From: Chiloscyllium plagiosum
Taxonomy: Eukaryota
DNA length: 59,518 nucleotides
Direction of reading: 5' to 3'
NCBI RefSeq assembly: GCF_004010195.1
Contig: NC_057719.1
Location: forward strand, 16,977,177-17,036,694
Shown here: positions 2,087 through 47,768 of the stretch, one piece after another
Layout of the letters: each line of letters begins with the position of its first letter
Numbering within the stretch: position 1 is the first letter of the stretch
Translations under genes and position numbers: made by a program
Notes under the pieces: generated by a model
Database searches by the model: none
What the model was told of the DNA's origin: nothing
Seen by the model: the letters and a program-made list of their open reading frames with translations, nothing else

Positions 2087-2889
2087 CCTGATGAAGGAGC
2101 AGCACTCCAAAAGCGAGTACGGGCACCTGGAAGTACTCAAGGATACCCTCATAAGAACAGGGTACGATGCTCAACTCATCAACTGCCAGTTCCGATGTGC
2201 TACAGCAAGGAACCGTAATGACCTCCTCAGGAGATAGACATGTGCTGCAACCGACAGGGTACCCTTCGTTGTTCAATATTTCCCAGAAGCCGAAAAACTA
2301 CACCATGTTCTTCGTGACCTGCAACACATTATCGATGAGGATGAGCATTTCGCAAGACCTTCCCCACACCTCCATTATTTGCCTTTAAACAACCACCAAA
2401 CCTCAAACAGATCATTGTTCATAGCAAACTGCCCATCTTTCAGGCAACACCATACAACTCTGCTACGATAGATGCTGCAAGACGTTTCAGAGTGTGGATG
2501 TGGATACCACCATTATGTATGGGGACTCTTCACCATGTACATGGCAGGTACTCATGTGACTCAGCCAATGTTGTCTGTCTCATACATTGCAGGCAAGGAT
2601 GCCCTGAAGCTTGGTACATTGGTAAGACGAGCAGAGGCTACGACAATGGATGAATTGACACCACACAAAAGTCAACAGACAGGAGTGTTACCTCCCAATC
2701 AGAGAACACTTCAGCAGTTCAGACATTCGACCTCGGACCTTCGGGTGGCCATCCTCCAAGGCGGACTTCGGGACAGGCAGCAATGAAAAGTGGCTAAGCA
2801 GAGGCTGATAGCTAAGTTTCATACCCATAGGGCGGGCCTCAACCGGGACCTTGGGTTCATGTCATACAACAGGTGACCCCATTGCACTA

Positions 2890-3100
2890 TGCGCGCGCGC
2901 ACGCACACACACACACACAGACTCCCCTACAAACTCCTACACACCTACACACACGCACTCTTACACACGCACACATACATATGCACCCTCTCACAGACTT
3001 ATACCCATTTACACTCACACTCACACACATGCACCCACTCTCTCACAGACTCTCACGACCCCCGTCCATCCCACACACACACACATACTCCACACACATA
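2890..3100 (+). repeat. Degenerate (CA)n/(GC)n microsatellite inside the PLE 3' UTR
   Basis: gcgcgcgc followed by cacacaca-rich tract; source of the His/Thr-rich spurious ORFs. Confidence 0.9.
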
Positions 3101-3473
3101 AGTTTTTGGGGTGAATTTGTACTTGCGGAGTTACATTTTACTTCGCTCAAAAACTGCATGAATCCATGTAAGATTCTGTAAATTTATTTTTTTAGATTAG
3201 AATCAGTCTAAACATTGTGGCATGGACAGTATCACAGAGGGGAACTCACACCTTCAATACATTATCTGGGCTGACAGACACCAATTGTTAAAATTCACTT
3301 GAGAATGTAACATTTTGCAATTTACATATGAAAGAACTGAAACCAACATGGTCATTCTAAAAGATGAGAGACTTAACAAACAATTCAGGTCTTTTTCAAT
3401 ATATAATTTCAGCTACACCACACTGTATACTTTTGCTTTAAATTCTGTGTCTTACAATCTTATTCTCCACAAC

Positions 3474-3508
3474 CACCTGATGAAGGAGCAGCACTCCGAA
3501 AGCTAGTG
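3474..3508 (+). ncRNA. Minimal type-I hammerhead ribozyme, family B, core intact
   Basis: CAC-CTGATGA-A-GGAG(cagca)CTCC-GAA-AGCT-A-GTG: conserved core, stem II, palindromic helix III (AGCT), stem I CAC/GTG; predicted cleavage after A3505. Confidence 0.8.
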
Positions 3509-3597
3509 CTTCCAATTAAACCTATTGGACTATAACCTGGTGTTGTGTGATTTTTAACGTTGTACATCCCAGTCCAACACCAGCTTCTCCAAATCTT

Positions 3598-3746
3598 GAT
3601 CATAACCCATTGACATTTGTAGAAATATTTAAGGACAAAAATGCCAGACTGTTTAGATGGGGCTTGTTTCAGCCATTCAATTTGAAATTGTGCATATGGC
3701 AGGTCACGAAAACATGATTGTTGATGTGTTATCGAGACTCGAATGA
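3598..3746 (+). pseudogene. Ty3/gypsy pol C-terminus (end of RNase H), one frameshift, followed by stop
   Basis: DHNPLTFVEIFKDKNARLFRWGLFQPFNLK/VHMAGHENMIVDVLSRLE* matches gypsy RNase H motifs (TDH.PL, R.RW, N..AD.LSR). Confidence 0.8.
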
Positions 3747-3911
3747 GCTACGGAGGCGTTTGGTGGCAGGTGTACCACGGCCTGAATTTATATGTGGTTG
3801 TGCATGTTTGCATCTGTATAGTGTATTTGTGTGCTTTGGACAACTAACCAAATTGTATTTGAAGGTTTTTAAAAATGAAGCCACCTTTTGGTATTGAGCG
3901 TTCTTTTCTTT

Positions 3912-4358
3912 AAGGGGGGAGGTGTCACAAAGCTGGTCCCTTTTCTCTAGAAGCTGTACCTTTTCTCAAGGATACTGGGTCTTTGATTTTTTTCAGAGGG
4001 ATCATAAAACTCTCCCAGTTCTGGTTAGACTGGTTTGGTACAGAGATGAAAAGGTATTGAGAGGCTTTTTTGTTTATATGTAAACAGATGAGACTTCAGG
4101 CCAAAGTGGTCATGTTTTAGAAGTGACCTGTATAATGCTAATCGGGACTGTTGAGTTTATTCAGAACAGCAAAATTAATTCTAATTTGGGTAGACTGAGT
4201 TTTTTAGGGGTTCCTTATTCTGTTCTTTGTGTTTCATTGTGTAATTTTGTGAATAAATTTTTGTCTATTTTAAAACCTGGAAACTTACTCCGTGTAATTT
4301 TATGGTCTAGGGCTGCCTGCTTAAGAATGTTTTGAGTGGTCTGGCCTAGTCCATAACA
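3912..4358 (+). mobile_element. Polypurine tract plus 3' LTR of the gypsy element
   Basis: PPT AAGGGGGGAGG (3912-3922) directly followed by TGTCAC (3923) and ending ATAACA (4358); contains AATAAA. Confidence 0.8.
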
Positions 4359-5955
4359 TCATTCTAACCTACCTTGTGGTTGGAGATAAGCCCATGGGCA
4401 GAAACATACTGCATAAGAGTGGCTCTGTGCAATGCTGTTTCCTATACATTTAAATTATCCGTGCTTACTGAGGGAGGACCAAGAGGCCTATAAAATCTGA
4501 TCCCTCAGGTTTAGAGTTTTTGAAAGTATTGAATATTGAACAATTTATTCTGGAATAAATCTCTAATCTTTCTGATGATTCCGAGCTTGTGTTGATCGTT
4601 TATTTAAAAGTATCTTTACTTTCACAGCAATCCTCGAATAATGGCAGTAGATTTGAATGTGCCTGCTAAAAGCTCAGAGCACCTGTATTAATGACTGCAC
4701 CTTTAGCAATGTTAATCCAGCTTCATGACAACTTCTCCCTCAGTAACTCCAGCAAACCTGTCCCCCTGTGACATCATCAGCAAACCATTTAGACTAATTA
4801 TATTTTTTAAAATCAACAGAGAGACAGAGACAGAAGGATATTAGAGTTACTGATAAATCTAATTCTTAAAAGAGGTCCTGATTGTAACACTCGCTGTTTC
4901 ATGTAGTTCTCAGAGACGCTCCACTTAATGTGATACCATCAACTTAATGAGACATTGGTCATTGCCTTTGCTTTGTCGCAATTCTTTTCCCCATACCATT
5001 AATCTGCAGATAGTACTTGAAGTAATTACATGTGCTGTTCATATGTTTGAGTCAGAAGATAGTTAAGCAGCATGAATTTCCATTGTTTCCTAAGATGATA
5101 TTATTTTGATTGTTGCTGCGTATATTTTGATTTAAGGGCTTTAGCGTTTATCACTGATTTCAAAGTGCAATTATTTGATCACATGCTAGGACAGATTTGC
5201 AAAATGTTTGCAGTGAAATTAATATTATTGCAACAGTATTTCTTTGAATCCTCATCCCATGCCATACAATTCTTCTTGCATCAAATCCATCCAATTCCCG
5301 TCATTCCTTTCATATCACTGGATCACAGATTTGTTATATCTCATCCTCGTCCCACTTCATTTGCAACACGAGCAAGGGATGTACTCTTTATCAAGAGCTT
5401 TAAAATATCCTTTGTTTTGCTTTGGTACAATAATATTTTAGCAGCAGAGTTGTAAAACAGTATTTCCAAATCTTTGACAATTTTATTTGAAAAGTAAGTT
5501 AGTGGTAATTTCTTTATCCTTGAGATAAATCTGCTTCTGAGAGAACATTTTCATATTTCAGAGAGATCATTTTCATAATTAAAACAATACAAGGTGCAAC
5601 AATGGTTTATCTAAGAGATCAGGAAGAATCCAAAACAATCCATCAATCGGGGCAAACCTTTAATGGTCCAGGGCCCAATGATCTGAGTTTGCTGCAGGTC
5701 AGCTGAGGACAGTTTTGTCATCCAGAGCAAAAAAAGCCTACCCCCAACTAGCGACACATGGATAATATTACCAGTGGCTGGTAGGGTTACCAACATCCTT
5801 GCTCAAAGAAGCGGAGGGTATCTCTCTAGAGAGAGTATAGAGCAATAACATTGGGTATATGTTGAGTCAGCATACAGCTGACACTGACTGATGGGTCAAA
5901 TGACCCTCTCCTGTTCTGTAAACCTATGTTTGTGTTATAATGGTGACTTATGGTT

Positions 5956-6266
5956 GTGTGGTATGGTGGCTTGGTGATTAGCACTGCTGCCTCACAGCAC
6001 CAGGGACCCGTGTTTGATTTCTGCCATGGGCGACTGTCTGTGCGGAGTTTGCACATTCTTTTTGTGTCTGTGTGGGTTTCCTCTGGGTGCTCTGGTTATC
6101 TCCCACAATCCAAAGATGTGCAGGTCAGGTGAATTGGTCATGCAAAATTGCCCATAGTGTTAGGTCTATTAGCCAGGGGTCTGGGTGGGTTACTGTTTGG
6201 AGGGTCGGTGTGCACTTGTTGGGCCAAATGGTCTGTCTTCATTCTGTAGGGAATCGAATCTAATCT
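5956..6266 (+). mobile_element. HE1-like V-SINE
   Basis: tRNA-like head (tggcttggtgattagcactgctgcctcacag), V-domain ctgtctgtg.ggagtttgcacattct...gtgggtttcctctgggtgctctgg, (ctaat) tail. Confidence 0.88.
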
Positions 6267-8365
6267 TATTCCTAGCTAGCTCTGCAGTACCTCTGTTGAG
6301 ATGGAAGGTTGTTTGGTCGACACTTTCCCATTGAATACATTGATGCACATGCTCAGTGTCACTCTGATGGTGCAGTTTCCAAATTTCAGGTGTATGAAAG
6401 GTTACAGTGTGTCCCACCTGTTGCTCTTGGAAGATGCCTTTGTGGTAAGGGTTCCACTATCTGCATATGGACTGTACTGAAGTGACTACATTTAATGAGG
6501 TTAGAAGTACTTAATGGTGAAAGATACAAAGTAAATGTAAGCTTTTTTTTTTAAGATCAATGTCTTTCCATCTCCATCTGACCAGTCAATGCTGTTGAAT
6601 GTTAATTTCTTCATGAAATCAGTAACAGGCAATAAAAAAGTGACCTGTCTGTGAGATTACATCCTCCAAACAAATAAAGATTTTAAGAAGACTTTTTGTG
6701 CAAACACTTCATTGGTTAAAAGGTGTTTTGGGATGCCTTGAGTTTGGGAAAGTGCCGTGTAAATCAAAGTAATTTGCTTTCTTTATTGTGCATCTATTGA
6801 GCAACTTGAAAAAGCTGTTTAGCATTGAAAGAGTTAAGTAGTCTACAGTGCAATTGATAGGATTAATTTCACAGGTCACCAATATATTGTACTTACGTTA
6901 CAAATGCTAGTATACTGAACACACTCCAGGGGAACCAGATTAACCTGTGAGTAACTTTCCACATAATTTCTCAGAATCCATGCCCATTACAAATTTATGA
7001 AGGAATGCCTTCATCTTTATTTAGTTTTGAATCATTTAATTCACTGCATTTCACATTTTATGCACAAAATGCATAATTTATCCACTGAAAGAGTATTTTT
7101 TAAAATCACTCTAATTTACTAGTCGCTCTATACTGGGCAGTAAGAACCAAAATGTTTGTTATAGGAAGATGTCACCTGTCCAGGCTGCTTACTGTTATAC
7201 AAATCACAGCTGATAGAGTGTGTGGGGATTTGGGGCCATAGCTGCAGATGCATAGACACGTTTAATATGCACATACTATCCATTTATGTTGAAATACAGT
7301 TTGACAATCACAATATAATGTGTCATATATAATGTGCATAATTGCGGTTGAAATATCAAGTCCTTGAATGAAAAATACATACATTTTTCAAATCTGCATC
7401 ATCTGAGAAATAATTTGACCAAAATACTCTGATGTTCCCTACTGACAGAAGCCAATACCTCAACAGTACATTTTTCCAATGATTTCCATAATTTTTCGAT
7501 TAGAAGCAATGACATTTTACACAAATAAAAGTGTTTTTGTTTGAGAGGCTGTTTTGTGAGAGTGTGAGACTCTGTGGGGAATTTTAATCCATTGCCATAT
7601 TGGTCAGAGTTGGGGGCTGGCTAGGAGGCAGTGGGATTGAGGGGTATGTGGTCAATCATCAAACACGTGACATCTGAGCCCAATCTGCTACAAGCACACC
7701 TTTAATTTTAACTACATTTTAACTAGATTAGGGGCAATTTGATTAACCGATTCTGGAGTGGTAGCTCATTAGTTTTGGTACGTAGATGAGGCTCAAGCTC
7801 TCAGATTCTGGCAGCATTCAAACACAATGCTGGATGATGAGATCTCACAGAGTTTGGGAAATCCAACTGCGAAAGACAAGCAGGAGCTTGTGGGGCAGCA
7901 GGCATGTGCTTCTTTAGAGATCGGGGGACAAAAAATGCCGGATCGGGGTTGTACGTTCCCTTATCCTCCTTGCAAACTTTCTGCCATCTTCCTGTCATCT
8001 GCTGACTGCGCCTGTGCTAATTTTTGCTTCTAACATAGTGTTTTACCTGATGCAGCAGTGCTATTATTATTGCCCAGAACACGAGACTTTTGACACAAAT
8101 ATTGTGGTATTGAAGAATCCAACAGACCTTTACTGCATCTTATTATAAGCATTCTCAGTAACCTAGGTGTCTGTAGTAATATTAAACTATTAGATTTCAA
8201 CAGAGCAGCATTCTTCCAGTAGCAGGTCATGCTTCAAATAATTTCTGAGTAAGATGGTGTCTGAAACCTTTATACCCTTAGGTCACATGCTATGATACAG
8301 TGATAATATATGAGTATGTCTCTTAAAGATATTTTGACAATAAAAAGTAATAACATGAGTAATAA

Positions 8366-8488
8366 GTTGTTCTGAAGAAGGGTCACTGGACCACAAACTC
8401 TGCTTTCCTTGCACCGATGCTGACAGACCTGCTGTTTCTCCAGCCAGTGCTATTTCTGTTTCAGATTTCCAGTATCCATAGTCCTTTG
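8366..8488 (+). mobile_element. Short HHR-derived element, family C (degenerate)
   Basis: gtt-CTGAAGA-a-gggtc actg gacc then actctg...gatgctg.cagacctgctg, shared with 43060-43159, 38501-38943 and 47419-47512. Confidence 0.65.
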
Positions 8489-8490
8489 TA

Positions 8491-11269: not shown

Positions 11270-11271
11270 AA

Positions 11272-11695: not shown

Positions 11696-12339
11696 CCCCA
11701 TGTCTGTGCCCAGGGCAACCTGTCCAATCTGTGTTGGGCAGCTCTGGACTGACCGTGCTCGACCACTGCCTTTTAAACATAACACCAATACCAAGAGCCC
11801 CAGAATGTTCCAGCAGTGGGAAGTAATTCCCACCATGGTGGGTGAGAGAATACGATGAGTTGGGTGCCATAAGGGCTTGGTGAAATAGAAATGGGTCATG
11901 TCTGGGAAAATAGCATGAAGAATCCAGTTTAATCTGGTCTCACAGAGAGAGAGTTCCTCCACAAGAATTGCCAAAATTGACATTCAGCTAATTTCTGGAA
12001 AGATTCTGCCCATTGTTTCAAAATATAACAACATTTCGAACTTCATAATGTTGGCAACTTCACCCGAGTTTCTTTGTGAGAAAATCTGTCGCCAGAATTT
12101 AATTGGTTCAGAGCAGGGACTCCAAAACCCAACTCCACTTTGGCCATTTATGGTACATCTGACCACTTTGTTCGAGTACCTGACAACCACTTGGTTGTTA
12201 TCAAGGCTTGTGTCCCTTTGAAAGGACATTGCCCTCCCCCAGACTGCTGGGAGTTGCTGGTCAGTCAGAGATGCAACAGCTTAGTAGTGGGATCGCTGTG
12301 GGCACAAGAGGTTAGTTAAACAGGCCCCAGCAATGGGAG

Positions 12340-12432
12340 CTGAAAATGTGTTGCTGGAAAAGCGCAGCAGGTCAGGCAGTATCCAAGGAGCAGGAAAATC
12401 GAGGTTCGGGTATAAGCCCTTCTTCAGGAAAT
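12340..12432 (-). mobile_element. Short HHR element, family A (degenerate core CTGAAGA-a-gggc ttat accc-gaa)
   Basis: Reverse complement matches 31017-31100; flanked by 13-bp direct repeat CCAGCAATGGGAG (12327-12339, 12458-12470). Confidence 0.75.
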
Positions 12433-15565: not shown

Positions 15566-15754
15566 GACAAGGTCAGAAGTCATATGACACCAGGTTATAG
15601 TACACCAGGTTTATTTGAAATCACAAGCTTTCGGAGCACTGTTCCTTCATCAGCCAAAAGCTTGTGATTTCAAATAAACCTGTTGGACTATAATCCAGTG
15701 TCGTGTGACTTCTGACTTTGTCCACCCTCGTCCAACACTGGCACCTGCACATCA
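15566..15754. mobile_element. Fold-back (inverted) HHR element, family B subfamily, inserted in a LINE tail
   Basis: Arms 15566-15634 and 15654-15722 are reverse complements; minus-strand core CTGATGA-A-GGAA cagtg CTCC-GAA-AGCT-T at 15625-15653. Confidence 0.8.
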
Positions 15755-18700
15755 AGTCAAGTTGGGGGGTGGCTTGGAGGGGAGCTTGCAGGGTGGTAGT
15801 GTTCCCATATATCCACTGAGTCTTCCTATTGTGAAGGTTAGCTGTGTTTCCAATAATGAGGGTTTATGTGGTTAGATGGCTAGACAGAGTATTTTCCATT
15901 TGATATTTTGATAGTTATGTGAGATTACTGAGCAGAACATGCACCATACTCCAAAGGTCGCATCAGGATCCCTGGATGGAGTTGTAAAATGAAAGGCAAT
16001 TAAAAAGAAAAATTATTTCATGCAATATGAATATCACTGGTAATCATTTGTTGACCCTCACTAATTCTCCTGGGGTGGGGGGTGTGGGGGCATGGCATCA
16101 GAAACCTCTGTCCTTCATTGCCAAATAGGTTTTTACTTATCTCTGTCAAATTACTTTGGGTTTTGCATCAATACAAAAGTAATAATGAAGATTAAACAGT
16201 TTGACAGTGAGCAGGATGTGTGGGAGCTTATAGTATATATGGAGGACACGAGGTAGCTAGATGGAGATTTATCCTTTTGGAATAGACAAGTATTATGGAG
16301 GGATTATTGAGGACAATGGAGGTAGGCTAAGTGGCTTGGTATAAAGAGGATTTTTGTGGTTGGTGAGGTGGGTCGTGGATAACCATTTTCTCATTGTGCT
16401 GAAATAAAGTGCTAATTGACCACTGTCTCTCAATGCGAAACCTGTTCTTTTCTCGTGATGTTACCTCGGGATTTTACAAAAGGACTATAACTCATGAGTG
16501 GCTGGGGTCTGAGTGAGCTGAGAAAGATTTCCATGTGGGTGATACATTGTGAATGATGTAATATTCTCTGAGTGATTCATTCCAGTGTTTTAAATGCATG
16601 CTGGAATCAGACTGAGTGATAATTCACTGCTGCCATGATATTAATGTCATGTCAGCAGACAAAAAAAGTATCACTTGAACCCAGGCAATGAAGATAGTTT
16701 TAGTGCAGATACCACAAGTGTGGAGATAAAGGGTGAGTGAAATTATGTCTGTGTGTGGCATTCCACAATTATTGAATAATAACTGTCTGATGACACTGTG
16801 AGGGAGACCACATAAACCCCTTTTATTGGAAACACAGCTAACCTTCAGCCACACGAGTCAAATACAACTCCTCTCATGATACCACAATGAGTCATTTTGC
16901 TGCTTACAGAATACAGTTGCATTGTCAGTGCTGCAAAAAGAAATGACTGTATTTTACCTGCTCGGCAATGGCAGCCTTCCTCCTGTGTTAAGGACCTCCG
17001 AAATCGTCATCACGTCAAACATTTTTTTATTGAGTCAGGACAATGTCTAGAGCTGAACCCTAATTATAGAGTGAATGCAGTCAGGGGTGCAGTTCAGAGT
17101 TTGTTAATGAGTTAAAGGGAGGAGGTACTCTTCAAAGTGATATTTAGTACTGGTTAATTGGCAGCACAATGAATGACATTTTATTGTAAAACAGTAATCC
17201 AAGCATTCAAGTACCCTGAATGATATGAACTGCTGCCTGAGATTCATTAAGAAATAAAAAATATTATGTAAATATATGAATTGTAAGTTGCATTTTTTTA
17301 CTTGTGTTGTCTGTTGATTTTCCCGATGTCATTTGATTTGTGGAAAGATAGTGAGCTCTCGTTTCAGTGGTCATGTGAAATTAACATAACACTCCTAAGA
17401 GGATAGGGAGAGAGGACCAGTGTTATTTTCATGCTGACAGCATCATTTGATCGAGCTATTGGTCATCTGCCCGAATATAATCCTTATGTGGCTCAGTATC
17501 AAATGTACTCCCTGTGAAGAATCTTGGGATGTTTTATCGTGTCAAAAATGTGATATAAATGAAAGTTGTTGCTCTGATTGGTCATTTGTCTCATTGTAGT
17601 TTGAGGGACCTTGTTATTTGCAAAATGTCTTCCAACTTTCTCTTAAATATTTCAACAATGACACACCATAAAAGTATATTATTGGATTCAAAAAGCTTTT
17701 GAAGGTGCTATGGTCATGAAAGATGCTGTTAGAACACAATTTCCTACTACCTTGAAATAATATGATTCATCCTTATATACATGTTTGTAACCGTCTAAAA
17801 GATAGTGAGAGGTGAGTGTTAAAGGTTAAAAAGTATGATGCGGAAGTTGAAAGGGTGTATTTCTAAATGCTTCAAAAGTTCCTTTCACTTTTTTGCATAA
17901 TATATTCAAATTCAGGGGCAGCATTTTCAATATTGATTATAGTTTCCATTCCTGATTGAGCTGTGTCAGCAAGTCATGTTTGGGTGAGAACAGAGGAGTT
18001 CAAAAGCTTGGCTAAAATTTGAAGGTTTTGTGGAATGCATTAAAGGAGAGGTGAGAGGAACAGAGGTTTCTGGAGGAAATTTCAGAGCTTAGGGAATCTT
18101 TGGTGGCTGAAAGTTGGGGCACCAATGGTCTGGTGATGGCAATTCCTAGGAAATGGCTGAAGAGGTCACTACTGAGGCATCACAGAGTTCTCACAGAATT
18201 GCAAGAAATCATGAGGGTGAATTTGAAAATAAAGATGCAAATTTTAAATATGAGAATTACTGGATTGGAAACCAAATATGAGTCACTAAGCACATGGTGT
18301 TTATTACAACATGGTCAGTAGAGTTTTGGCTGCGTTCAGAAATGGACTCTAGTTTATTGTCAGTCCTGCGACACCACTAAAGTCAATGATTTCACCTTTG
18401 ATTCTCCACTTGAGTTCAGATATTCCCCATCTCCTCCCTTAACTAAAAAAACACTACAGATATAAGATGCAATTCTGCCTTTGAATGATTTAGTTGCATT
18501 GCCTAAGCTAATACAACATCTTTGCATCAGTGTCTTTTCATGTAAGCACAAGTATAGCAACCTATATTGGAAATCTAAATATATTAATAAAGGCCAGAAA
18601 GTACTGCTACAGGCCAAGAAATGTATGAATTTATGTATTCACATTTAAAACCTTTGTACTTGGAAGTATTTTATAATTATAAGTGGACTCCTGTAATCCA

Positions 18701-19999: not shown

Positions 20000-20440
20000 A
20001 AAGTACAAGGGCAGAAAAGGAACAAGGAAGGAAGCAGGAACAGGTAGAGTGACTGTGCAGAAGCAGAAAAATGGCCAGGAAATTGGGTGAGATTCAGGGC
20101 CAGGGGAAAGGCCAGGGTGTAGGGAAAAGTGCAGGGACTGGGGTGGAGAATGGGACACAAACAGGGACAGGGAATTCACCAGGAAAGGGACAGGGAATGG
20201 GACAGGGAGTGGGATATGGATATGGAATGCAACAGGGAATGAGATAAGGACTAGGTTGGAGAATGGTACAGAATTGGTCCAATTCCCTGCTCCTTTATCA
20301 TTCCCTGTTGCATTCTCTGTTCCTGCTCCAGCAGCGGGGAATGGTGCAAGGAATTGTACAGGGCCAGGGAGTAAGGCAAGGAGTAGGGCAGAGATAGTGA
20401 ATGGGATATGGACAGGGAAATGAATAGGCACAGGAAAGAA
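20000..20440 (+). repeat. Purine-rich low-complexity, degenerate 6-mer repeat (gggaca/gggaat)
   Basis: Visible periodicity, e.g. gggacagggaatgggacagggagtgggatatggatatggaat. Confidence 0.7.
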
Positions 20441-22400: not shown

Positions 22401-23087
22401 TTTGATGTTGTCCACAAATGAGTTGCAAGGTCTCAATGGTTTTCAGGGAGTTACTGGTCATCAATCAGTATATGCAGGAAATGTCTGAGATTGTGCCAAT
22501 CATCCCCAGACTGCATTTACCTCTTGGGTGTCTGTTAATATCATAAAGAATATCCAGGTGTCTCGGAGTGTGTTTATACTTCTACAAACTTTCCGACACA
22601 GTAAGCTTAAAAACCTGCTTCTGCACAATGCAGCCTTTGTTTCTGGAAGTCGAAATTGCCGTTCTGCACCTTAATCCCATAATAGGAATGGCTGTAAATT
22701 GTTACATTGTTCCAATCCCTGTGAGGAATTGTAAAGCAAAATAACCAAATTTACCAAATAACCCTCAGAGAAGAAATTACCAACAAGATTTCACTTCTGT
22801 AACATTTACCTTAATGTGAATCAGAGCCAATTCAAGTTAAACGTGGATTAACATGTTTAAAATGATGATGATTTAAAAAGATACTTCAAATAAAAGATTA
22901 CATTTCCATTTAAATAGCCAATACAACACAAATATTCACATCACTTCCCACACAATGTGGCACTACATAGCTGCATAATTCCACAGTATGCTGCTCATTA
23001 TTCATGCCTAAAGGCTGGTTAGACAGCATCTTCCAAACCCACTACAGATGCAGGGTACATCTAGCAAAGCCTAAAAGGCAGACCTTA

Positions 23088-23273
23088 ATGTGGAGGTGCC
23101 GGTGTTGGACTGAGGTGTACAAAGTCAGAAGTCACATGACACTAGGTTATACCCCAACAGGTTTATTTGAAATCACAAGCCTGTGTTATCAAAAAAACCT
23201 ATTGGGCTATAACCTGGTGTTATGTGACTTCTGACTTTGTCCACCCCGGTTTAACACTGACAACTCCAAGTCA
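23088..23273. mobile_element. Symmetric hairpin element made of the post-cleavage part of the family B repeat
   Basis: About 92-bp inverted arms with the axis at tcacaag|cctgtg (23179/23180). Confidence 0.82.
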
Positions 23274-23482
23274 CAGCCTGACTTGGAAATATATCGCCGA
23301 TCCTTCAGTGTTGTTGTGACAAAATCTTGGAATTCCCTCTATAACGGCATTGTGGGTCGATGTACAGCACATAAACTGCAGTGGTTTAAGAAGGCAGCTA
23401 ACTGCCATTTTCTTAAGGGAAACAGGGATCAGGCAATAAATGTTGGCCCAGCCAGTGACGCCCACATTCCATAAGTGAATTT
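23274..23482 (+). mobile_element. 3' tail of a second CR1/L2-group LINE family
   Basis: cctgacttggaaatatatcgcc...ggcaataaatgttggcccagccagtgacgcccacattcc; also present at 50392-50645 (-), 15372-15565 (-) and about 36960-37100 (-). Confidence 0.75.
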
Positions 23483-24040
23483 TAAAAAGTCTCGATGTGT
23501 AGCTTTCCACAGTTCATTTTCAACTGACCAAATTATAACCCCAATCTATGGTTATAATCTTATTCCTGGGACAACTTCTTGATTTTCTATAAGCTACTCA
23601 CACAGCTTTTCAGACTCTAATGTCTTTTAACCAGCTCACACAGTATCTCCAAGAGCTCCTGTCTCCTCCACTGCCAAAGCAAAACAATCTGTTCCTAAGA
23701 ATAGTTTGCTTCTTCTCCTCAAATAATCTTTTTTCTTTCTGTTCTCTTTCTATCTCTGCTTTCTCTTGTTGGCATCTGTGTCTTCAACCTCCAGCTCTCT
23801 GCTTGTAACTGTCCTTGTGCCTGCCAGCATTGCAGTTATTTGTCTTAACTTCATCCTATTGCTACTGATCCTGAGACGAAGGTCATCACAATATAAAAAC
23901 CACTGTTCTCCTCACTAATAAACATTTGAAATATTAATTTAATAACATAAGAATACTTAAATGATAGATAATGTTCCTCAGAATAAAACTCCAGCACTTC
24001 CCATTCTGCCTCCATTAAATGCAACCTCATCTTCAATACA

Positions 24041-26287: not shown

Positions 26288-26530
26288 TGCTGGGCAGAAG
26301 TGGGTACTGCAGATGCTGGAGATTAGAATCAAGATTAGAGTGTACAAAGTTACAAATCACACAACACCAAGTTATAGTCCAACAGATTTAATTGGAAGCA
26401 CACTAGCTTTCAGAGTGCCGCTCCTTCATTAGGAATGATGAAGGGCTTTTGCCCGAAACATTGATTTTCCTGCTCCTCGGATACTGCCTGACCTGCTGTG
26501 CTTTTCCAGCACCATTCTAATATTGATTCC
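26288..26530. mobile_element. Chimeric fold-back element: A(-) tail, B(-) repeat with HHR, A(+) repeat with HHR
   Basis: About 26297-26342 is the reverse of the family A 3' end; 26343-26433 is family B minus strand; 26435-26530 is family A plus strand; flanks GATTTCTTAA / GATTCCTTAA. Confidence 0.8.
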
Positions 26531-29717: not shown

Positions 29718-29875
29718 CTGAAATAAAAACAGAAAGTGCTGGGGAAACTCAGCAAGTCTGGCAGGATCTCAAAGCATTAACACCATTTCTTTCTCCACAG
29801 GTGCTGCCTCTCCTGATGAGTTTCTTCAGCAATTTTTGCCTTTATTTTGAACTTCCAGCATCTGCAGTATTTTAT
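29718..29875. mobile_element. Fold-back family C-like element with 11-bp TSD
   Basis: Inverted arms; TTCTTAAAGCT at 29707-29717 and 29876-29886. Confidence 0.7.
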
Positions 29876-30369
29876 TTCTTAAAGCTTATCAGAGAAGCAA
29901 AACACTTACTTACCCCAAGTATTATCTCATTCTTAATTGGCCACTTTAATCACAGAATTATTATGGTGCTGAGGAGGCCATTTGACCCATTGTGCCTGCA
30001 CTGCCTCTATTATCTAGTCCAGCTATATTATCCAGTGCTAACCTCCTGCCTTTTCGCCATATCCCTGCACAGTATTACTATCCAAAAATCCATCCAATGC
30101 ACTCTCGAATGCATCAATTGACCTGCCTTCATCTCCCACCCTATCTCTTGCAAAAATGCAATCCCGTATTCCCAATTCCTCAACCTCCGCCGTATCTGCT
30201 CCCAGGAGGACCAGTTCCACCACAGAACACACCAGATGGCCTCCTTCTTTAGAGACCGCAATTTCCCTTCCCACGTGGTTAAAGATGCCCTCCAACACAT
30301 CTCGTCCACATCCCGCACCTCCGCCCTCAGACCCCAACACTCCAACCGTAACAAGGACAGACGCCCCTG

Positions 30370-30804
30370 GTGCTCACCTTCCACCCTACAAACCTCTGCA
30401 TAAACCAAATCATCTGCCGACATTTCCGCCATCTCCAAAAAGACCCCGCCACCAGGGATGTATTTCCCTCCCCATCCCTTTCCGCCTTCCGCAAAGACCG
30501 TTCCCTCCGTGACTACCTGGTCAGGTCCACGCCCCCCTACGACCCACCCTCCCATCCTGGCACCTTCCCCTGCCACCGCAGGAACTGTAAAACCAGCGCC
30601 CACACCTCCTCCCTCACCTCCATCCAAGGCCCTAAAGGAGCCTTCCACATCCATCAAAATTTTACCTGCACATCCACTAATATCATCTACTGTATCCGTT
30701 GCTCCCGATGCGGTCACCTCTACATTGGGGGGACTGGGCTCCTTCTAGCAGAGCGCTTTAGGGAACATCTCCGAGACACCCGCACCAATCAACCAAACCA
30801 CCCC
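30370..30804 (+). pseudogene. PLE linker plus GIY-YIG endonuclease frame (open up to the assembly gap)
   Basis: FTCTSTNIIYCIRCSRCGHLYIGGTGLLLAERFREHL: IIY..CxxC..YIG.T...R..EH. Confidence 0.9.
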
Positions 30805-30940
30805 NNNNNNNNNNNNNNNNNNNNNNNNNNNNNNNNNNNNNNNNNNNNNNNNNNNNNNNNNNNNNNNNNNNNNNNNNNNNNNNNNNNNNNNNNNNNNNNN
30901 NNNNNNNNNNNNNNNNNNNNNNNNNNNNNNNNNNNNNNNN
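30805..30940. other. Assembly gap (136 N)
   Basis: Run of n. Confidence 1.
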
Positions 30941-31012
30941 ACTCTATGCTACCATCTCCCCACCCCCACCCTCCTCTCACTTATCTCTCCACGCTTCCGG
31001 CTCTCTGCCTTT

Positions 31013-31048: not shown

Positions 31049-31645
31049 TTGCTGAAGCTCCTCGGATGCTGCCTGAACTGCTGTGCTCTTCCAGCACCAT
31101 TGATCCAGAATCTGGTTCCCAGCATCTGCAGTCATTGTTTTTACCTAGTGCATTCCATATCCTAACTACACACTGTATGAAACAAGATTTTCTCATATCA
31201 TTTGCGCATCACTTTAAATCTATGCCTGCTCATTCTTGTTTCTTTAATGAGTGGAAACAGCTTCTGTTCTATCCAGCCCACTCATGATTATTAACAGCTA
31301 TTGTGTTAGTAATAATTGGTAATGGTTTTTATGGGGTATGCTAAAATGTCATAGACCCTCAAAGCTAACTCTGTTTCTCTTTCTACAGGTACTATCAGAC
31401 CTGCTGAATATTTGTACACTTTCTATTTTAATTATTTACAGCATTCACCTTGTGCCTATGTGTTTGGCAGTCTTTACTTCCTGTTAGGCAGTGCAACCTT
31501 CTTAGGTCATGGAGTCAGTGCATGCTGTGTTCAGCATTGATTCCCTCATTAAGAAACGGTGCAAGATTGGGATCTGACCTGAACGATGGGTTATCACTCT
31601 TCACAGGTGCTGACCTTTAGCTTTGATTTACTTATTTCATCATAT

Positions 31646-31855: not shown

Positions 31856-34800
31856 ATATGCCATTTTCTATTCAATAAATAGTATGTAATGCATTGCGAA
31901 TGGTGTGTACTCTCAGGAATGTCATATGGGAACATTATAAATTTAATCCCTACCCTAGTAATATTTCTCACAAATATGTTTGTCTACCAATGACACAGAG
32001 GTCAACATTTCTATGATCCTCACAATGTTCCAAACAATTTCTGCAGTGAGTCACCTGAAACGTTCACTCTGATTCTCCCTTCACAGACTTGATGAGTACT
32101 TCCATTGTCTTCTGTTTTAAGTTCATACAATGGTAATCCTAGCAACAGCAATCTTTTTCCTTTGACAGGGACTTGTATAATCCGAATTTGATTTTGAATT
32201 GTAGAACAAAACTTTGACCTCTAAAAATACAGAAAGGATACCTAAAAATATCCCAGTTTAAATTATTTGCATATATTTTAGTTTCAAGAATTAATTATAT
32301 ATCTTCATACAGCAATGAAGAGAAAAACAGATAAATATGACATAAAATAAAAATGTTGCAAATAAAATAAGCAGATAGATGCCAGATTAATTAGATAGAA
32401 CATGATAGTTCATATGTTGAGAATAGATAGGTATAAATAGCAGATTAATTGGATTGTACGTGATCTTAAATATAAAGAATGGATAGATGATGAGTAGATG
32501 AATAGAACAGAAAAAAACAATAACATCAATGTTTATATCTAGATGTATTTAGAAATAGCAGCTTTACAAAGAAATTACTTACAGATTAAACATACCTGAC
32601 AAAAGAATTGAAGTACTAGTTTAAAAGGGACAAGTCTAAACTGTACTGGCAGTGCTTGCTCTTTGCTATTAAAAAACTTTGTCAGATAAAAATGTATCCC
32701 TCCCCCTGTTTGAGTTTCTGTAATTATTCCTCCTTCCCTAAGCCCCTGATGTCCTGTTTCATTGCATTCATCTCCTTCACTGACAGCCTCCTGCTCTTAA
32801 ATCAATCTAACTACACAAAGGTTGCTGGTTGGTTGATTTGTAACTTTCTGAAACTGGCCTGAAATTGACAAGATGATTGTTGGGAGAAGGTAAATTTCCA
32901 CAGCGTTTAAAGACAAACATATTTTCATTTGATTCACCCCATCGCAGATGATTTTCAATCTTTAGGCTATGGGGTCTGCTAATATTACCAGCTGCATACC
33001 TGAGCAATCTCCCAGAGAACAAGGTGGTTTACATGCAGACAGTAAAAGCCCTATTACACATTATCTGCAGCCATCATTACTGGGAGCCCATATTGAACAG
33101 ATTTATGGATAATGAAACGTTAACATATAGAATGTCTTCACTGCAGACGAATTTCATCGGCAATTTCTTTTCCTCCATTCAATCATTTTAAAGTAAGCAT
33201 TGGTCTTTCTTTTATCAATTTTGTTTTTATTTTCTTTATTCTTTAGGCTGAACATTGTGAAGGATGTAATTTGCAATGATTGGAACAACTTTCTGTTTTG
33301 GGTGTTAGTGGTGGTAGCACCAAACACTCCCAAGTCACACATGGCACAGGCAGATTTAGAGTTTAGCTCCCTTAAATATTCCGAACAAGGAGTTGTAATT
33401 ACAATATCCAAAGCACATTCTCCATTGGAAATGTCCACTCTGACACTGACCAGCTTTACTTATTCAGTAAATTTGTCAATTTTCTCTCTGTGCGTGACAA
33501 ATTTTCAACTGTCATGCTGTAGACTTGCATTGGCTAGATGTTATCTTGGAACTGTCCAAACTCGATTCCTCAAAGACATCTATAGCCAGTGAAGAATGCA
33601 GATATTTATTCCATTAGTCTGATGAAAACTACATGATTAATCCACTGCATGGTCCAAATGCCATTATATTTATTTTTATAGAAATGTACCTTTTTTAAGT
33701 GGTATTATGATGCATTTCTTCTCTTGTCCTCAACCAGCTCCTACCACTAACATCTTGGAAATTGACTAGAAGTTTAACTGAACCTACCATATTAATATTG
33801 TGGATATTTCTGAGGTCACTATCTTGCTGTGAAAGAAATATTTTTTGAACAACATATTCCATTAAGAAGGTGAAATGTTCAAATGTTCAATTAACTTTTG
33901 AGGGATCTAAAGTCAGAACTTTTGGTGCTAAAGGGACACAAACATTCAACAAGTTAAAGAACAATCCATTTATATCTGATGAGAAATGTATCATCAATAA
34001 TATTTATGCACAACAGGATGGCTCCCAAAATATAATGGAGTATGTTTAATTAGTGGAAATTATAGTATCAGTGTTTAAATAATCTAGTTAAAAATGACTT
34101 TTGGTTCCTTTTCAAATGGGATTATTGGAAGTAAGTTGGGCACCTCATTTAACTGAATATATCAGTTGGTTTATACCTTGACCTCCCTGGGAAGTGACCA
34201 GTTGCCTTTTTGAATGTTCTCATTCACGGAGATCAAGTAATCTTGCATTATAGAGATCACAGAACTGATATAAATTGCTGACTTCACCATGCTGTGCACA
34301 TTCGAAAGGTGTTTAGGTTATGTTGGTAAATTTATACCCAGGTGCCATATGGAACAGTGCTCTTGCTGCTTCAATCCTGCACAGGAGTTTGAATGTAATC
34401 ACAGTAGAGAATCTGGATACTATGGTAATAGTTAGAGTAGGTGAATTAAAGCTGGTCACAGGACTGTCACACCATACAATAACTTTCACATCACTTTTTT
34501 CATCTGAAGTGATTTATCAAAATCCACATTGTCTAAAAGTTAACTCTTCAATTTTACTTATTAAAGGATCAGTAGTTTTCTAAGTGATTTTGGTAACTTG
34601 TGCAAACAACTAACTGGGGCAAAAAAAATCCAAGTGCAACCATAATGTGCGTTAAAAGTGGCCTCTAATTGCACATCTCCGATGTCATATGTCTGTTGTC
34701 TTTAATTACAAACCATCTGCTCACCTGTATACAGTCTACTCCCAGCAACATGACACCAACCTCCTATTGAGGAGACTAAATAAAACAAATTATGCTATCT

Positions 34801-38435: not shown

Positions 38436-38500
38436 TATTGGTATTTTTAACCAGTAAACAGCTGGGCCTTTGGTCACTGGAACCAAATAGCCCAACTCTT

Positions 38501-38943
38501 GGGTTCTGAGTAAGGCTCACCGGACCTGAAAAGTTTTTAGATTAGATTACTTACAGCGTGGAAACAGGCCCTTCGGCCCAACAAGTCCACACCGACCTGC
38601 CGAAGTGCACCCACCCAGACCCATTCCCCTACATTTACCCGTGCACCTAACACTACGGCAATTTAGTATGGCCAATTCACCTGATCTGCACAGTTTTGGA
38701 CTGTGGGAGGAAACTGAAGCACCCGGAGGAAACCCACGCAGACACGGGGAGAACGTGCAAACTCCACACAGTCAGTCGCCTGTGGCAAGAATTGAACCCG
38801 GGTCTCTGGCGCTGTAAGGCAGCAGTGCTAACCACTGTGCCACCGTGCCACTCACTGCCACCGTGCCGCCCACCACTCTGATTTCTCTCCACAGATGCTG
38901 CCAGACTTGCTGAGATTTTCCAGCAATTTCTGTCTTGTTTCTT
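38501..38943 (+). mobile_element. Family C HHR element split by an HE1 SINE
   Basis: gggtt-CTGAGTA-a-ggctc accg gacct-GAAAAGTT, then the SINE, then actctgatttctctccacagatgctgccagac... Confidence 0.75.
38537..38871 (-). mobile_element. Young HE1-like V-SINE with duplicated 5' head
   Basis: Reverse V-domain with CpGs retained; tgccaccgtgcc occurs twice at 38838-38867. Confidence 0.93.
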
Positions 38944-39700: not shown

Positions 39701-40025
39701 GGACAGCGCAGTGGCTCAGTGGTTAGCACTGCTGCCTCACAACACCAGGGACCTGACTTCAATTCCACTGTGGAGCAACTGTCTGTGTGGAGTTTGCACA
39801 TTCTCCCCATGTCTGCGTGGGTTTCCTCTAGTGCTCCGGTTTCCTCCCATAGTCTAAAGATGTGCAGGTTAGGGGGATTGGCCATGCTAAATTGCCCATA
39901 GTGTCCAGGGATGTGTAGGTCAGATGGATTAGCCATGGAAAGATGCAGGGTTACAGGGATAGGGTAGGGGGGGTGTCTGGGCAGGATACTCTTCAGAGGG
40001 CTGGTGTGGACTTGGTGGGCCAAAC
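39701..40025 (+). mobile_element. HE1-like V-SINE, long subfamily
   Basis: Head and V-domain plus extra gtgtccagggatgtgtaggtcagatggattagccatgg segment. Confidence 0.9.
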
Positions 40026-40838: not shown

Positions 40839-40849
40839 CGATATCAACC

Positions 40850-41752: not shown

Positions 41753-41769
41753 ATGTCATTGACATAACG

Positions 41770-43059: not shown

Positions 43060-43159
43060 GTTCTGAGGAAGGGTCACTGGACCCAAATGTTAGCTCTGAT
43101 TTCTCTCGATAGATACTATCAAACCTGCTGAGCTTTTCCAGCAATTTCTGTTCTTGTTT
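43060..43159 (+). mobile_element. 100-bp family C HHR element with degenerate 17-bp TSD
   Basis: GAGTT-CTGAGGA-A-GGGTC(actg)GACCC-AAA-TGT-T-AGCTC (43058-43096, G12 lost); flanks CAACATTTTGGATTTGA / CAACATTTTAGACTCGA. Confidence 0.75.
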
Positions 43160-43952: not shown

Positions 43953-44435
43953 TCATAGAGTCATAGAGATGTAGAGCATGGAAACAGACCTTTCAGTCCA
44001 ACTCATCCATACCGACCAGATATCCTAACCTAATCTAATCCCATTTGTCAGCACTTGGCACATAGCCCTCTAAACCCTTCCTATTCAGATACCCATCCAG
44101 ATGCCTTTTAAATATTGTAATTGTGCCAGCCTCCACCACTTCCTCTGGCAGCTCATTCCATACACGCACCACCCTCCCTGGGAAAAGGTTTCCCATGAGA
44201 TCCTTTTTAAATGTTTCCCCTCTCACCCTAAAACTATGCTCTCTAGTTCGGGACTCCCCTACCCCAGGGAAAAGACCTTATCTACTTACCCTAGCCATGC
44301 CATTCATGATTTTCTAAACCTCCATAAAGGTCACCCCTCAGCCTCTGACGCTCCAGGGAAAACAGCCCCAACCTATTCAGTCTCTCCCCCCAGCTCAAAT
44401 TCTCCAACCTTGGCAACATCCTTGTAAATCTTTTC
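43953..44435 (-). mobile_element. HER1/CR1 LINE 3' end
   Basis: Minus frame RVVRVWNELPEEVVEAGTITIFKRHLDGYLNRKGLEGY; tcatagag tail repeats. Confidence 0.92.
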
Positions 44436-44624
44436 AGTTACTCAGATAAGTCTGGGCTTGGGGCTTTGAAATCTCATAAGAGGCCTTCAATTTTATCGAT
44501 GTGGTCTGTATCACCACCTGCTGCTGGATCCACAATGTCTTTCTCTCAAGCTATACTTAAAATCACAAATTCATCAATGGGTACAGTAGTATATTAGTTA
44601 TGCTACTGGACAATGTGTATGCCA

Positions 44625-44868: not shown

Positions 44869-45121
44869 CATAGAGTCATAGAGAAAGACAGCATGGAAAC
44901 AGACCCTTCGGTCCAATCCGTCCATGCCCACCTCCTTGTCAATAAGTCTGTAAAGGCTCACATGCAGGTGCAGGAAGCTATTAGGAAGACTGATGGCATG
45001 TTAGCTTTTAATGAAAGAGGATTCGAGAACAGAAGTGAAGTTTTGTACATTCACTTGTATAGCAGCTTGGCTGGACCACACCTGGAGTATTGTGTACAGT
45101 TTTGGTTTCCTTATCTAAGAA

Positions 45122-45418
45122 TGGATACAGTGGCTCAGTGGTTAGCACTGCTGCCTCACACCACCAGGGTCCCAGGTTTGATTCCAGCCTCAGGCAGACT
45201 GTCTGTGTGGAGTTTGCACATTCTCCCCGTGTCTGCATGGGTTTCCTCCCACAGTCCAAAGATGTGCAGATTAGGTGAATTGTCCATGCTAAATTGCCCA
45301 TAGTGTTAGGTGCATTAGTCAGAGGGAAATGGGCCTGGGTGGGTTACTCTTCAGAGGGTCGGTGTGGACTTGTTGGGCCAAAGGGCCTGTTTCCACACTG
45401 TAGAGAATCTAATCTAAT
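45122..45418 (+). mobile_element. HE1-like V-SINE
   Basis: Head, V-domain with small deletion, ctaat tail. Confidence 0.92.
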
Positions 45419-45562
45419 TATTACCATAGAGGGATTGCAACAAAGGTTTACCAGACTTGTTACTGGGATGGCAGAACTGTCCTATGAAGAAAAATTGGAC
45501 AAACTTGGCCTGTATTCCCTAGAGTTTCAGAACATTGAAGCCTACAAAACACTTAAAGAGAC

Positions 45563-45785
45563 ACAAAGTTAAAAATCACATAACACCAGGTTATAGTCCA
45601 ACAGGTTTAATTGGAAGAACACTAGCTTTTGGAGCACTGCTCCTTCATCAGGTTCATCACAACCACCTGATGAAGGAACGACGCTCCGAAAACTAGCGCT
45701 CCCAATTAAGCCTGTTGGACTATAACCTGGTTTTGTGGGATTTTTAACTTTGTACATCCCCAGTCCAACACCATCATCTCCAAAT
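45563..45785. mobile_element. 223-bp fold-back family B element with two divergent HHR cores and an 11-bp TSD
   Basis: Minus core 45623-45651, plus core 45667-45695; CTTAAAGAGAC at 45552-45562 and 45786-45796. Confidence 0.88.
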
Positions 45786-47214
45786 CTTAAAGAGACGGAC
45801 AGGGTAAATGCAGTTAACATGTTTCCGCAGCTTAGAAAGTGTAGAACCAGCAGCATAAGGGGAGTACTATTAAGGATGAGATAGAAATTGTTTTGCACAG
45901 TGCAGAGAATCTTTGGCATTCTCTGCCACAGAGGGCTGTGGAAGGCCAGTCTTTCATTATATGGAAAGCAGAGGTTGATAAAGTATTGATTATCAGTGGT
46001 ATAAAATGTTGTGGGGGTAGTAAGGGTAAAGGTCATTGAAGTATTCGATCAACCACGTTCGTATTAAATGGTGGGGCAAGCTCGATAGGCTGAATAGTCT
46101 ATTTCTGTTTCTACATTCGTACATTCCTAGTGGATTACCATGTAGTTATCACGTTTCTGTTTGAGGGAGTTTGCCATTCACAAATTGGCTGCTGTATATC
46201 AAATATAAATTTAAATCACACAACAGCAGTTTGAAACTTAGAACTTAACTTCAAAATTAATTAAATTTGAGCAGCCATCCATTGGTGAGGCTGAAGAAGG
46301 TAGAGCAAATGTGGCATTAAAGTTATTGGAGATATGGGCAGATAAGTAAAGATGTGGGGCGATACTAATGAGGATTGATGCAGAAAGTGAGGGTGTACAG
46401 GAGAAAGAAAATTTCAATGAAGAAAATTCCAAAGTTGTTTAGGCAGATGATAGCTGAAGAGGATTCTGAAGAAGATTTGATAAGCACGGAAGTAGAATAG
46501 AGTATATATGGCAATACTATAGCCGTATTCATCTCCTATCTAATGAGTCCTTGTGGGTCCTTCAAGCTAATGTCTCTGAAAATGTCAACAGTGCTGACTT
46601 CTTAAAACATTGGATGGTATTTAATCCTAGTGACAGGGGTCTCGCTCTCCAACTAGAGAGTTAGTGGGAGCCCCAGGTGGTCTCTTTTGAAGAAGGACCA
46701 CGGTATTAAGTGCCATTTAAGCAATTAAGGTTCAGGCCTTCCCAAGAGATTAAGGATGCCCAGGGTGCAGGACAGAATGCTGTCCCCTGAGAACCGCTGG
46801 CCAAGTGTACAGTGATTAATTAGTGTGATTAATATTCTCAGTTGAACCAGACAGACAGTGGTGCACCATTGATTTGTGTCCCTCAGAGCAACTGGGAGGG
46901 TAAAGGTATGTTCAGACTCAGTAGTTCTGTCCCAATGCCAAATGGAATCATTTGCAGAGCTGGCTTTATTCCCTTTCTAACTTATCTCAGTCTTAACATT
47001 TCTGTGTATTTTTCTATCCCCTTTTCTCTAGTTCCACCCACTCATGCCACACTGTTGGCTTCCCCACACCATCTCCTGGAAGATGTCTGGCCAGAGTGAG
47101 ACACGTTATTGCAGAGGTCACTTTTCAGACTTTCCATGTGGCAACCGCTCTCCCTGCACCTGCTTGAATACCTGTGCCAAGTGGGCTGAGGCTCTTAACT
47201 GGACATGAATTACT

Positions 47215-47403
47215 CCCTTCGAGAGTGTGGTGCAGCAGGTCAGGCAGCATCAGAGGAGCAGGAGAATCGATGAATCAGGATGAAGGGCTTATGCCTGAAA
47301 CATCAATTTGCCTGCTCCTCGGATGCTGCCTGACCTGCTGTGCTTTTCCAGCACCACACTCTTGACTCTGGTCTCCAGCATCTGCAGTCCTCACTTTCTC
47401 CTG
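47215..47403. mobile_element. Fold-back family A element with 10-bp TSD
   Basis: 47221-47272 is the reverse of about 47301-47362; ATGAATTACT at 47205-47214 and 47404-47413. Confidence 0.85.
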
Positions 47404-47418
47404 ATGAATTACTAACTT

Positions 47419-47512
47419 ACAAAAACAGAAATTGCTGGAAAATTCAGCAGGTCTGGCAGCATCTGTGCAGAAATCAGAGTCAATGTTTTGATCTAGTGAC
47501 CTTTCTTCAGCC
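47419..47512 (-). mobile_element. Family C HHR element (degenerate)
   Basis: Reverse complement ctgaaga-a-aggtc acta gatc-aaaacattgactctgatttctg... Confidence 0.72.
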
Positions 47513-47528
47513 CAGATCAAGTTGCTGT

Positions 47529-47768
47529 TAAAAGACAAGAGACTTAACAAACAATCCAGGTCTTTTTCAATATAAAATTTCAGTTACATCACACTGTAAA
47601 CTTTTGCTGTAAATTCTGTCTTACGATTTTATACTCCACAACCACCTGATGAAGGAGCAGCACTCCAAAAGCTAGTGCTTCCATGTAAACCTGTTGGATT
47701 CTCACCTGATGTTGTGTGATTTTGAATTTTGTACAACCCAGTCCAATCTCTCGACACCTCCACATCAT
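47529..47768 (+). mobile_element. Solo PLE family B terminal repeat (HHR with G12>A)
   Basis: Collinear with about 3358-3596; CTGATGA at 47646-47652. Confidence 0.85.

Follow-up and report, generated by a model that had tools for sequence, protein, structure and literature searches.

A single stretch of the Chiloscyllium plagiosum genome raises the question of why the core of one small RNA, the hammerhead ribozyme, should recur in it so often, and whether these copies are working ribozymes or the remains of something else. The stretch, analysed here at its full length and called the window, comprises 59,518 nucleotides (positions 16977177-17036694 of contig NC_057719.1, assembly GCF_004010195.1) within a 3.56-Gb genome. 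An earlier note, made from the letters of this DNA, had described three co-existing families of minimal hammerheads in it (A, B and C) and had taken their density to imply a very large genomic ribozyme population. As argued below, the motifs are in all likelihood minimal type-I hammerheads that belong to the end modules of Penelope-like elements (PLEs), and the copies are mostly neutrally decaying stubs, likely reverse-transcribed from RNA that was uncut.

The window was searched with a strict descriptor, which asks for CUGANGA, a stem II of at least 3 pairs, GAAA, a paired 15.2-16.2, U, H, and a stem I of at least 2 pairs. It matched three times (at 3474, 24856 and 31013), compared with a mean of 0.01 in shuffled windows (maximum 1 in 200; n=200). 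These sole matches are the three intact cores that had been named beforehand, at the same coordinates; residue 17, the predicted cut site from which the end positions of copies are counted below, is A3505, A24887 and C31044, and in all three copies C3-A9, G12-A15.1, U16.1 and H17 stand in type-I order. Homology searches, by which the A, B and C copies with a recognisable core were inventoried, yielded 16 minimal type-I cores (8 B, 4 A and 4 C), beyond which there are two more-decayed C copies and several arms without a core. The statement that the core recurs about 14 times is thus sound as a rough count but not as a count of intact copies. The exact pattern in a hammerhead context is present in 5 of the 16 (3477, 15653 on the minus strand, 24859, 31017 and 45667), two of these five having no stem I or palindrome, and an invariant base has been lost from 11 of the 16, most frequently G12. 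None of the four C cores is intact, and GAAACGTT at 32057-32064, which had been offered as an example of helix III, sits in a decayed C copy without CUGANGA. (Of the 14 Rfam matches to the window at E <= 5, none was to a hammerhead family; the microRNA (miRNA)-family matches at 47231-47341 and 15593-15696 are actually head-to-head hammerhead pairs.)

The families were also followed through a genome sample of 140 stretches of 10 kb, taken at even steps on contigs C1-C23 with the small contigs left out and amounting to 1,342,435 non-N bases. This sample contains a fourth family, D, with 35 copies (about 26 modules per Mb), a longer stem II, and no copies in the window. Where sampled copies span the core, it is intact in 78/128 of A, 23/44 of B and 7/27 of C. 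In all four families there is an unpaired base between positions 9 and 10.1, together with G10.1-C11.1; loop 3 is missing, and a palindromic 15.1-16.1 tetramer is present, although CpG decay has frequently disrupted this tetramer in individual copies. In family C, and in the B variant at 15653, position 17 is a U, which lengthens the palindrome to six bases and might set it in competition with the active fold.

Across families there is no variation in the core, in the extra base after A9 or in G10.1-C11.1, while the stems around them change in pairs: 15.2-16.2 is C-G in A, C and D and G-C in B; 2.1-1.1 is C-G in A and B, U-A in C and A-U in D; and 10.3-11.3 is either G-C or A-U. Changes of the same kind are seen within families. 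The A pair 10.2-11.2 goes from G-C to A-U in 10/133 copies (Fisher p 2e-7; one subfamily, hence one event), the B pair 2.3-1.3 goes from C-G to U-A in 6/39 copies, and 2.3-1.3 of D (n=27) is U-A in 15, G-C in 8 and C-G in 4; the association at 10.2-11.2 of C was not significant (p 0.69). Because the stems covary between families and subfamilies while the core stays fixed, the hammerhead fold can be taken, as had been proposed, to be selected in active source elements, with the proviso that these counts represent few independent events, scored without a phylogeny-aware test. The stem II sequences and the 4-nt palindromes given earlier (AGCT in B, ACGT in A and C) hold for the family majorities, and a fifth stem II pair is present in B. 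The stem I pairings need amending: A does not have a clean ATTC/GATT helix, with a U-U mismatch at 2.3-1.3 in 81/117 copies, and stem I of C has 4 bp, its fifth position being C-C in 10/14. That the motif is a product of chance or of repeat amplification, with no selected structure, deserves almost no credence: amplification alone does give high counts, and few independent lineages were compared, but the core and G10.1-C11.1 are invariant in four families with different stems, compensatory changes occur inside A, B and D, and there is agreement with the published PLE consensus.

The surroundings of the hammerheads identify their source. Families A, B and C are all end modules (pseudo-long terminal repeats, pseudo-LTRs) of endonuclease-bearing PLEs, and in each the hammerhead is sense to the open reading frame (ORF). 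The tie of A and B to parent PLEs in the window, already drawn in the earlier note, is borne out by ORF pieces at 30134-30804 (A) and 2119-2840 (B) and by independent loci. The A piece shares 86% identity with an open frame of locus L209, where a reverse transcriptase (RT) thumb, a Cys linker and a GIY-YIG endonuclease are followed, in that order, by the A hammerhead; PLE-type RT motifs are found in another A locus, L213. In 8 of the 11 best loci the A hammerhead lies downstream of the GIY-YIG match on the same strand (the pattern matched none in the other 3). In three independent loci (L060, L120 and L015) the B piece and the B end module again lie co-linear. Family C, which had been left without a parent, is linked here to its parent element by GIY-YIG remnants that lie on the same strand about 420-520 bases upstream in 5 of 25 loci chosen by the C pattern, one further GIY-YIG match being on the opposite strand. 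RT followed by a C-terminal GIY-YIG in one ORF is found for A (L213, L209); B and C are seen at the endonuclease end only. The linker CX2-5CxxC precedes the endonuclease in A (L209), in the C remnants and, across frames and partly decayed, in B in the window. A Cys linker ahead of GIY-YIG is a Neptune/Nematis feature (Craig 2021, PMC8557442), and by this motif, without an RT tree, the parent elements would be Neptune-like. When 94 stop-to-stop frames of the window were compared with Pfam, only GIY-YIG (30352-30804, E 0.00094) and a weak RT match (57131-57448) were obtained; no host gene was recognised among these frames, a comparison that small exons would escape.

The three sequence contexts had been called unrelated, which does not hold for all of them. 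The tails of A and C align with a score of 28 (shuffles 13.5 +/- 1.9, maximum 21 of 300), and the C endonuclease remnants are 33-59% identical to that of A; the tail scores of A with B (17) and C with B (16) are within chance, and the B endonuclease is 27% identical to that of A. Because the A and C tails share sequence above chance and B does not, A and C are, on these alignments, sister families, and there are two lineages rather than three. Copies of D (L122:7224, L142:6949, L160:9819 and L068:8017; 0-based, plus strand) have a 6-7 bp stem II with an ATG at its start, as in the Poseidon element PAc; D copies are mostly long, without the accumulation of 5' ends described below.

In the sample the strict descriptor matched 72 times (6 of these in D), compared with 0 per shuffle (n=5) and 0 in the reversed sequence. 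This corresponds to 54 intact motifs per Mb (bootstrap 41-68). End modules of A, B and C number 392, or 292 per Mb (254-331), with about 3.7% of sampled bases inside these end regions; roughly one in every five or six of these modules satisfies the descriptor. Extrapolated genome totals are estimated at 1.4-2.3 x 10^5 intact motifs and about 10^6 modules, and exact patterns run over the whole genome gave 69,589 matches for A, 3,499 for B and 225 for C (reversed controls 0). The very large number that had been foreseen is therefore real, and the figure of one motif per 4 kb fits the modules (one per 3.4 kb) but not the intact motifs (one per 19 kb).

Reading these numbers as a ribozyme population under selection finds no support. 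As a neutral control for family A, tail columns +17..+28 were used, which are the same in all subfamilies. Core changes in long A copies (13/460) are as frequent as those in the invariant tail (14/539; 2.8% vs 2.6%, p 0.85), and short A copies give 35/798 for core and 25/951 for tail. G12, which lies in a CpG, is changed in 8/46 long A copies vs 47/230 at other CpG sites (p 0.84), and in 17/80 vs 87/400 in short A copies; it is changed in 8/44 of B and 14/27 of C. A protected core, which had appeared in the first tests, vanished against the subfamily-invariant tail columns. Thus the structure is selected in source elements, and inserted copies, as far as the sample shows, decay neutrally.

The same result bears on the possibility that the dispersed motifs are active, host-selected ribozymes that cut host transcripts. 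Their estimated number and the exact A matches would suit such a role, and family A sequence does occur in RNA: in a single-cell poly(A) run (X19), 2,021 reads lie on a young A copy (L137:6560-6960), in both directions, with loose ends at the copy boundaries (6778, 6866-6871 and 6906); a second run (X20) gave none. However, read starts and ends do not accumulate at the cut site, nor does the depth fall there (a weak test, the library being fragmented); the core changes as fast as the tail, and G12 as fast as other CpG sites; and in the sample, where 224 copies have a full core, same-strand same-family neighbours make up only 34 pairs and are never closer than 423 bases. Copies that lie close together stand head to head, so that a transcript would contain one hammerhead, and in earlier work single minimal hammerheads showed no cleavage, and dimers cut slowly (Cervera and de la Pena 2014, PMC4209133). 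A host-selected, active population is therefore very improbable.

The shape of the stubs suggests how they arose. Two 3' end sites recur, some 35 bases apart: counted from the cut site they are at about +60-65 and about +95-98, and they correspond to the two RT start sites that flank the tail in PAc (Frangieh 2024, PMC11167929). If copies are set aside whose upstream side has N or the end of a stretch, the 5' ends gather at -40..-24, the front edge of the hammerhead, in 100/204 copies of A, 31/84 of B and 30/85 of C, with 11, 4 and 5 copies, respectively, ending within 3 bases of the cut site (-3..+3). Among 196 copies in the peak, 97 have an inverted partner and 4 are at a gap or edge; 6 of the other 95 share upstream sequence. 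An artefact of the reference panel is ruled out for A and B by long references and unique flanks; the C figure is less safe, three of its six reference copies being themselves short. Head-to-head arrangements include 162 of the 392 A, B and C copies, and 83/85 pairs are of a single family, with the tail of about 35 bases on exactly one arm in 75/85. Within A pairs the two arms tend to match at the columns that distinguish subfamilies (mismatch 0.11, compared with 0.38 when arms are paired at random). Cores without a normal tail are few (A 5/121, B 4/40), and no such A copy ends at the cut. The copies therefore have the 5' truncation, the inverted adjacent copy and the optional 30-40 base tail by which insertions of this kind are recognised. 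Since copies mostly begin at the front edge of the hammerhead rather than at the cut site, and head-to-head pairs are tailed on a single arm, the RNA that served as template was likely for the most part uncut.

In the window, the pair at 26340-26519 sets a B stub and an A stub head to head across a 2-base gap, an A-B combination seen in just 1/85 sampled pairs. It indicates either that two different templates can be joined head to head or that one stub was inserted at the 5' end of the other.

Sharply bounded units of two lengths dominate, and so the 90-130-base stubs might instead be a non-autonomous family of their own, similar to a short interspersed element (SINE) or a retrozyme and transcribed and copied from stubs; non-LTR retrozymes do derive from PLE ends (bioRxiv 10.64898/2026.07.22.740005). 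This idea is improbable, given that the stubs share subfamilies with long ORF-linked copies, that their 5' ends scatter over about 15 bases with unique flanks, and that no head-to-tail arrays occur in the window or the genome sample, though they may exist elsewhere in the genome. Another explanation keeps the PLE identity and ascribes the 5' pile-up to a roadblock or to processing at the hammerhead, by a bound protein, an RNA dimer or a nuclease nick. The boundary indeed follows the hammerhead edge in the unrelated families A and B, and the D. virilis start site lies not at helix I but upstream of it, by 46 bases and an intron; yet family D, with the same fold, has no pile-up, and a structural stall would be expected 3' of the fold. 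A roadblock is thus possible, though on the unlikely side.

With copying from uncut RNA as the preferred reading, the element RT-endonuclease would nick target DNA and start complementary DNA (cDNA) at one of the two internal sites (~+60-65, ~+95-98). The cDNA would run through the hammerhead and usually stop 24-40 bases before the cut site (about -32), most likely at the RNA 5' end. Longer copies could come from read-through or from 3' modules, and head-to-head pairs from copying on both target strands or from fold-back. In a tandem transcript, by analogy with known systems, two hammerheads would pair via the 4-nt palindrome and cut slowly, probably with an element protein, and isolated stubs, having no same-strand partner, would be mostly silent. 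Judged from their letters, the A and C palindromes should be compatible and the B palindrome should not. In PAc the hammerhead cuts only with protein and is dispensable for insertion in vitro, two RT start sites bound the tail, and uncut RNA is the main template (Frangieh 2024, PMC11167929). A more specific proposal can be made only tentatively and is rather unlikely as it stands: the stubs would be run-off ('strong-stop'-like) cDNAs from an uncut RNA 5' end at the hammerhead edge, and the palindrome would be mainly a family-specific pairing signal that brings two templates to both nicked strands, giving head-to-head inserts with a tail on one arm.

Several observations sit uneasily with this account. 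A cruder, base-matched test gave 81 core changes vs 110.5 expected (pooled ratio 0.73), and raw A columns gave 0.038 for core vs 0.065 for tail; the raw protection in A arises because the tail there includes subfamily differences. The control covers family A only, and some B or C copies may be under weak selection. Family D has no pile-up (2/31 at -40..-24), and target-site duplications were found for only 13/87 solo stubs (control 2). An RNA start at the hammerhead front edge is the most likely explanation of the pile-up, but it is inferred. Nearest-neighbour folding favours the hammerhead dimer over neither two monomers nor other folds: explicit dimer energies are about equal to or weaker than those of two monomers, heterodimer energies do not separate the families, and the lowest-energy folds keep stem II in A, C and D, with the hammerhead monomer fold in some copies only; these energies speak neither for nor against the dimer. 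As for the parents, the Neptune-like placement has a single motif, the Cys linker, behind it, the Pfam matches to GIY-YIG and RT fall below curated cut-offs, and a complete element was present in 0 of 7 fetched stretches, 6 of which contain assembly gaps.

The class has been known since 2014, and by sequence every feature of the PLE minimal hammerhead is found here; the contribution of this genome is one of scale. As in the minimal hammerheads of metazoan PLEs (Cervera and de la Pena 2014, PMC4209133), the motifs are type I, without loop 3, with a palindromic 15.2-16.2, an extra base between 9 and 10.1, G10.1-C11.1 and a short helix I, and they form several consensus families per genome, mostly as single motifs from truncated PLEs, with opposite-strand pairs. 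That study gave about 4,000 motifs in coelacanth and 9,000 in Xenopus, compared with 69,589 exact matches to the A pattern alone and an estimate of ~10^5 intact motifs here, by methods that differ, and helix II has 7-8 bp in Schistosoma but 4-5 bp in A, B and C. Cartilaginous fish are not named in its main text (its supplements may include one), and among the titles found in literature searches none was of a study devoted to PLE hammerheads in sharks.

The Anolis Poseidon element PAc (PMC11167929) shares with the present families a tail of 30-40 bases set between two RT start sites (here the two 3' end sites would be these), a template that is uncut (here likely so), and the lack of read ends at the cut site. 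It differs in that its ORF begins at stem II, whereas A, B and C have the Cys linker (Neptune-like), in that its cleavage was measured, that of A, B and C being predicted from the sequence, and in that a 5' pile-up at the hammerhead edge, seen here, is not described in its main text. Insertions of endonuclease-bearing PLEs (Craig 2021, PMC8557442; Arkhipova 2013, PMC3846280) likewise have 5' truncation, an adjacent inverted copy, a tail at one end and palindromic head-to-head junctions; the inserts here are mostly cut down to 90-130 bases, at ~290 per Mb. Non-LTR retrozymes (bioRxiv 10.64898/2026.07.22.740005) also have type I hammerheads from PLE ends and also occur in one cartilaginous fish, but consist of head-to-tail tandem units, each with a hammerhead, whereas the stubs are solo or head to head. 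An identification with them was rejected for the window and the sample: the window has no such tandem units, and in the sample the nearest same-strand same-family cores are 423 bases apart. What the hammerhead does for PLEs is an unsettled question (Craig 2021, PMC8557442). The scale found here gives statistical power, pointing to selection on source elements, none on inserts, and mostly uncut templates that end at the hammerhead edge, and it makes the start of PLE RNA and the time of cutting testable in this lineage.

The features of the window are collected in Table 1.

Table 1. Hammerhead-bearing modules and PLE remnants of the window, in order of position
Feature	Position	Strand	Remarks
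Family B hammerhead remnant, G12 and U16.1 changed	2088..2118	+	joined to internal B ORF piece two bases past predicted cut site
Broken 3' part of family B PLE ORF (RT-thumb region, Cys linker, GIY-YIG); stops, frameshifts	2119..2840	+	tblastn 27% to A endonuclease; co-linear with B end module in L060, L120, L015
Intact family B minimal hammerhead, predicted cut after A3505	3474..3508	+	in PLE 3' end module reaching 3594
Family C end module, helix III region deleted	8370..8487	+	
Family A end module, broken GAAAC region	12338..12430	-	
B-variant head-to-head pair	15570..15756	.	minus arm 15653-15570: core, without stem I 5' strand; plus arm 15654-15756: tail, without core
B-variant head-to-head pair, no core	23084..23276	.	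both arms begin at about predicted cut site
Intact family B minimal hammerhead, predicted cut after A24887	24856..24890	+	inside end module 24718-24948
Mixed head-to-head pair	26340..26519	.	B minus 26433-26340 (G5 changed); A plus 26436-26519 (C3, G16.2 changed)
Family C head-to-head arms without core	29725..29853	.	
Family A PLE ORF 3' part (RT thumb, Cys linker, GIY-YIG); one frameshift	30134..30804	+	stops at assembly gap 30805-30941
Intact family A minimal hammerhead, predicted cut after C31044	31013..31048	+	module and tail to about 31145
Family C end module, heavily decayed	31344..31429	+	
Family C end module, heavily decayed, without CUGANGA, contains GAAACGTT	32049..32118	+	
Family C end module apparently split by short interspersed repeat	38504..38931	+	core half 38504-38525 (G8 changed), tail half 38875-38931
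Family C end module, G12 lost	43061..43156	+	
Family B head-to-head pair	45563..45785	.	minus 45653-45563 (G12 changed); plus 45658-45785 (palindrome broken, tail kept)
Family A head-to-head pair	47234..47400	.	minus 47268-47234 without core; plus 47279-47400 broken core and tail
Family C end module, G12 and stem II changed	47420..47510	-	
Family B end module, G12 changed	47529..47746	+	

Some minor features of the window may be added. Its interspersed repeats resemble those of sharks. In the C module at 38504-38931 a minus-strand repeat seems to separate the two halves near the predicted cut site, one case that may be chance. A 300-base interspersed repeat has seven copies in the window (5955-6264, 24035-24351, 38657-38854, 39701-40024, 45120-45418, 47898-48225 and 51119-51402) and is probably a tRNA-derived shark SINE, perhaps the one named HE1. 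Beside the B remnant at 2088-2119, the segment 1559-1708 is a 95% copy of 2184-2333. An imperfect hairpin in a low-complexity, purine-rich stretch at 20214-20328 gives rise to weak miRNA-family matches. Fragments resembling a long interspersed element (LINE), at 57131-59478 and 43953-44460, have an inverted and direct arrangement and include one weak RT match.

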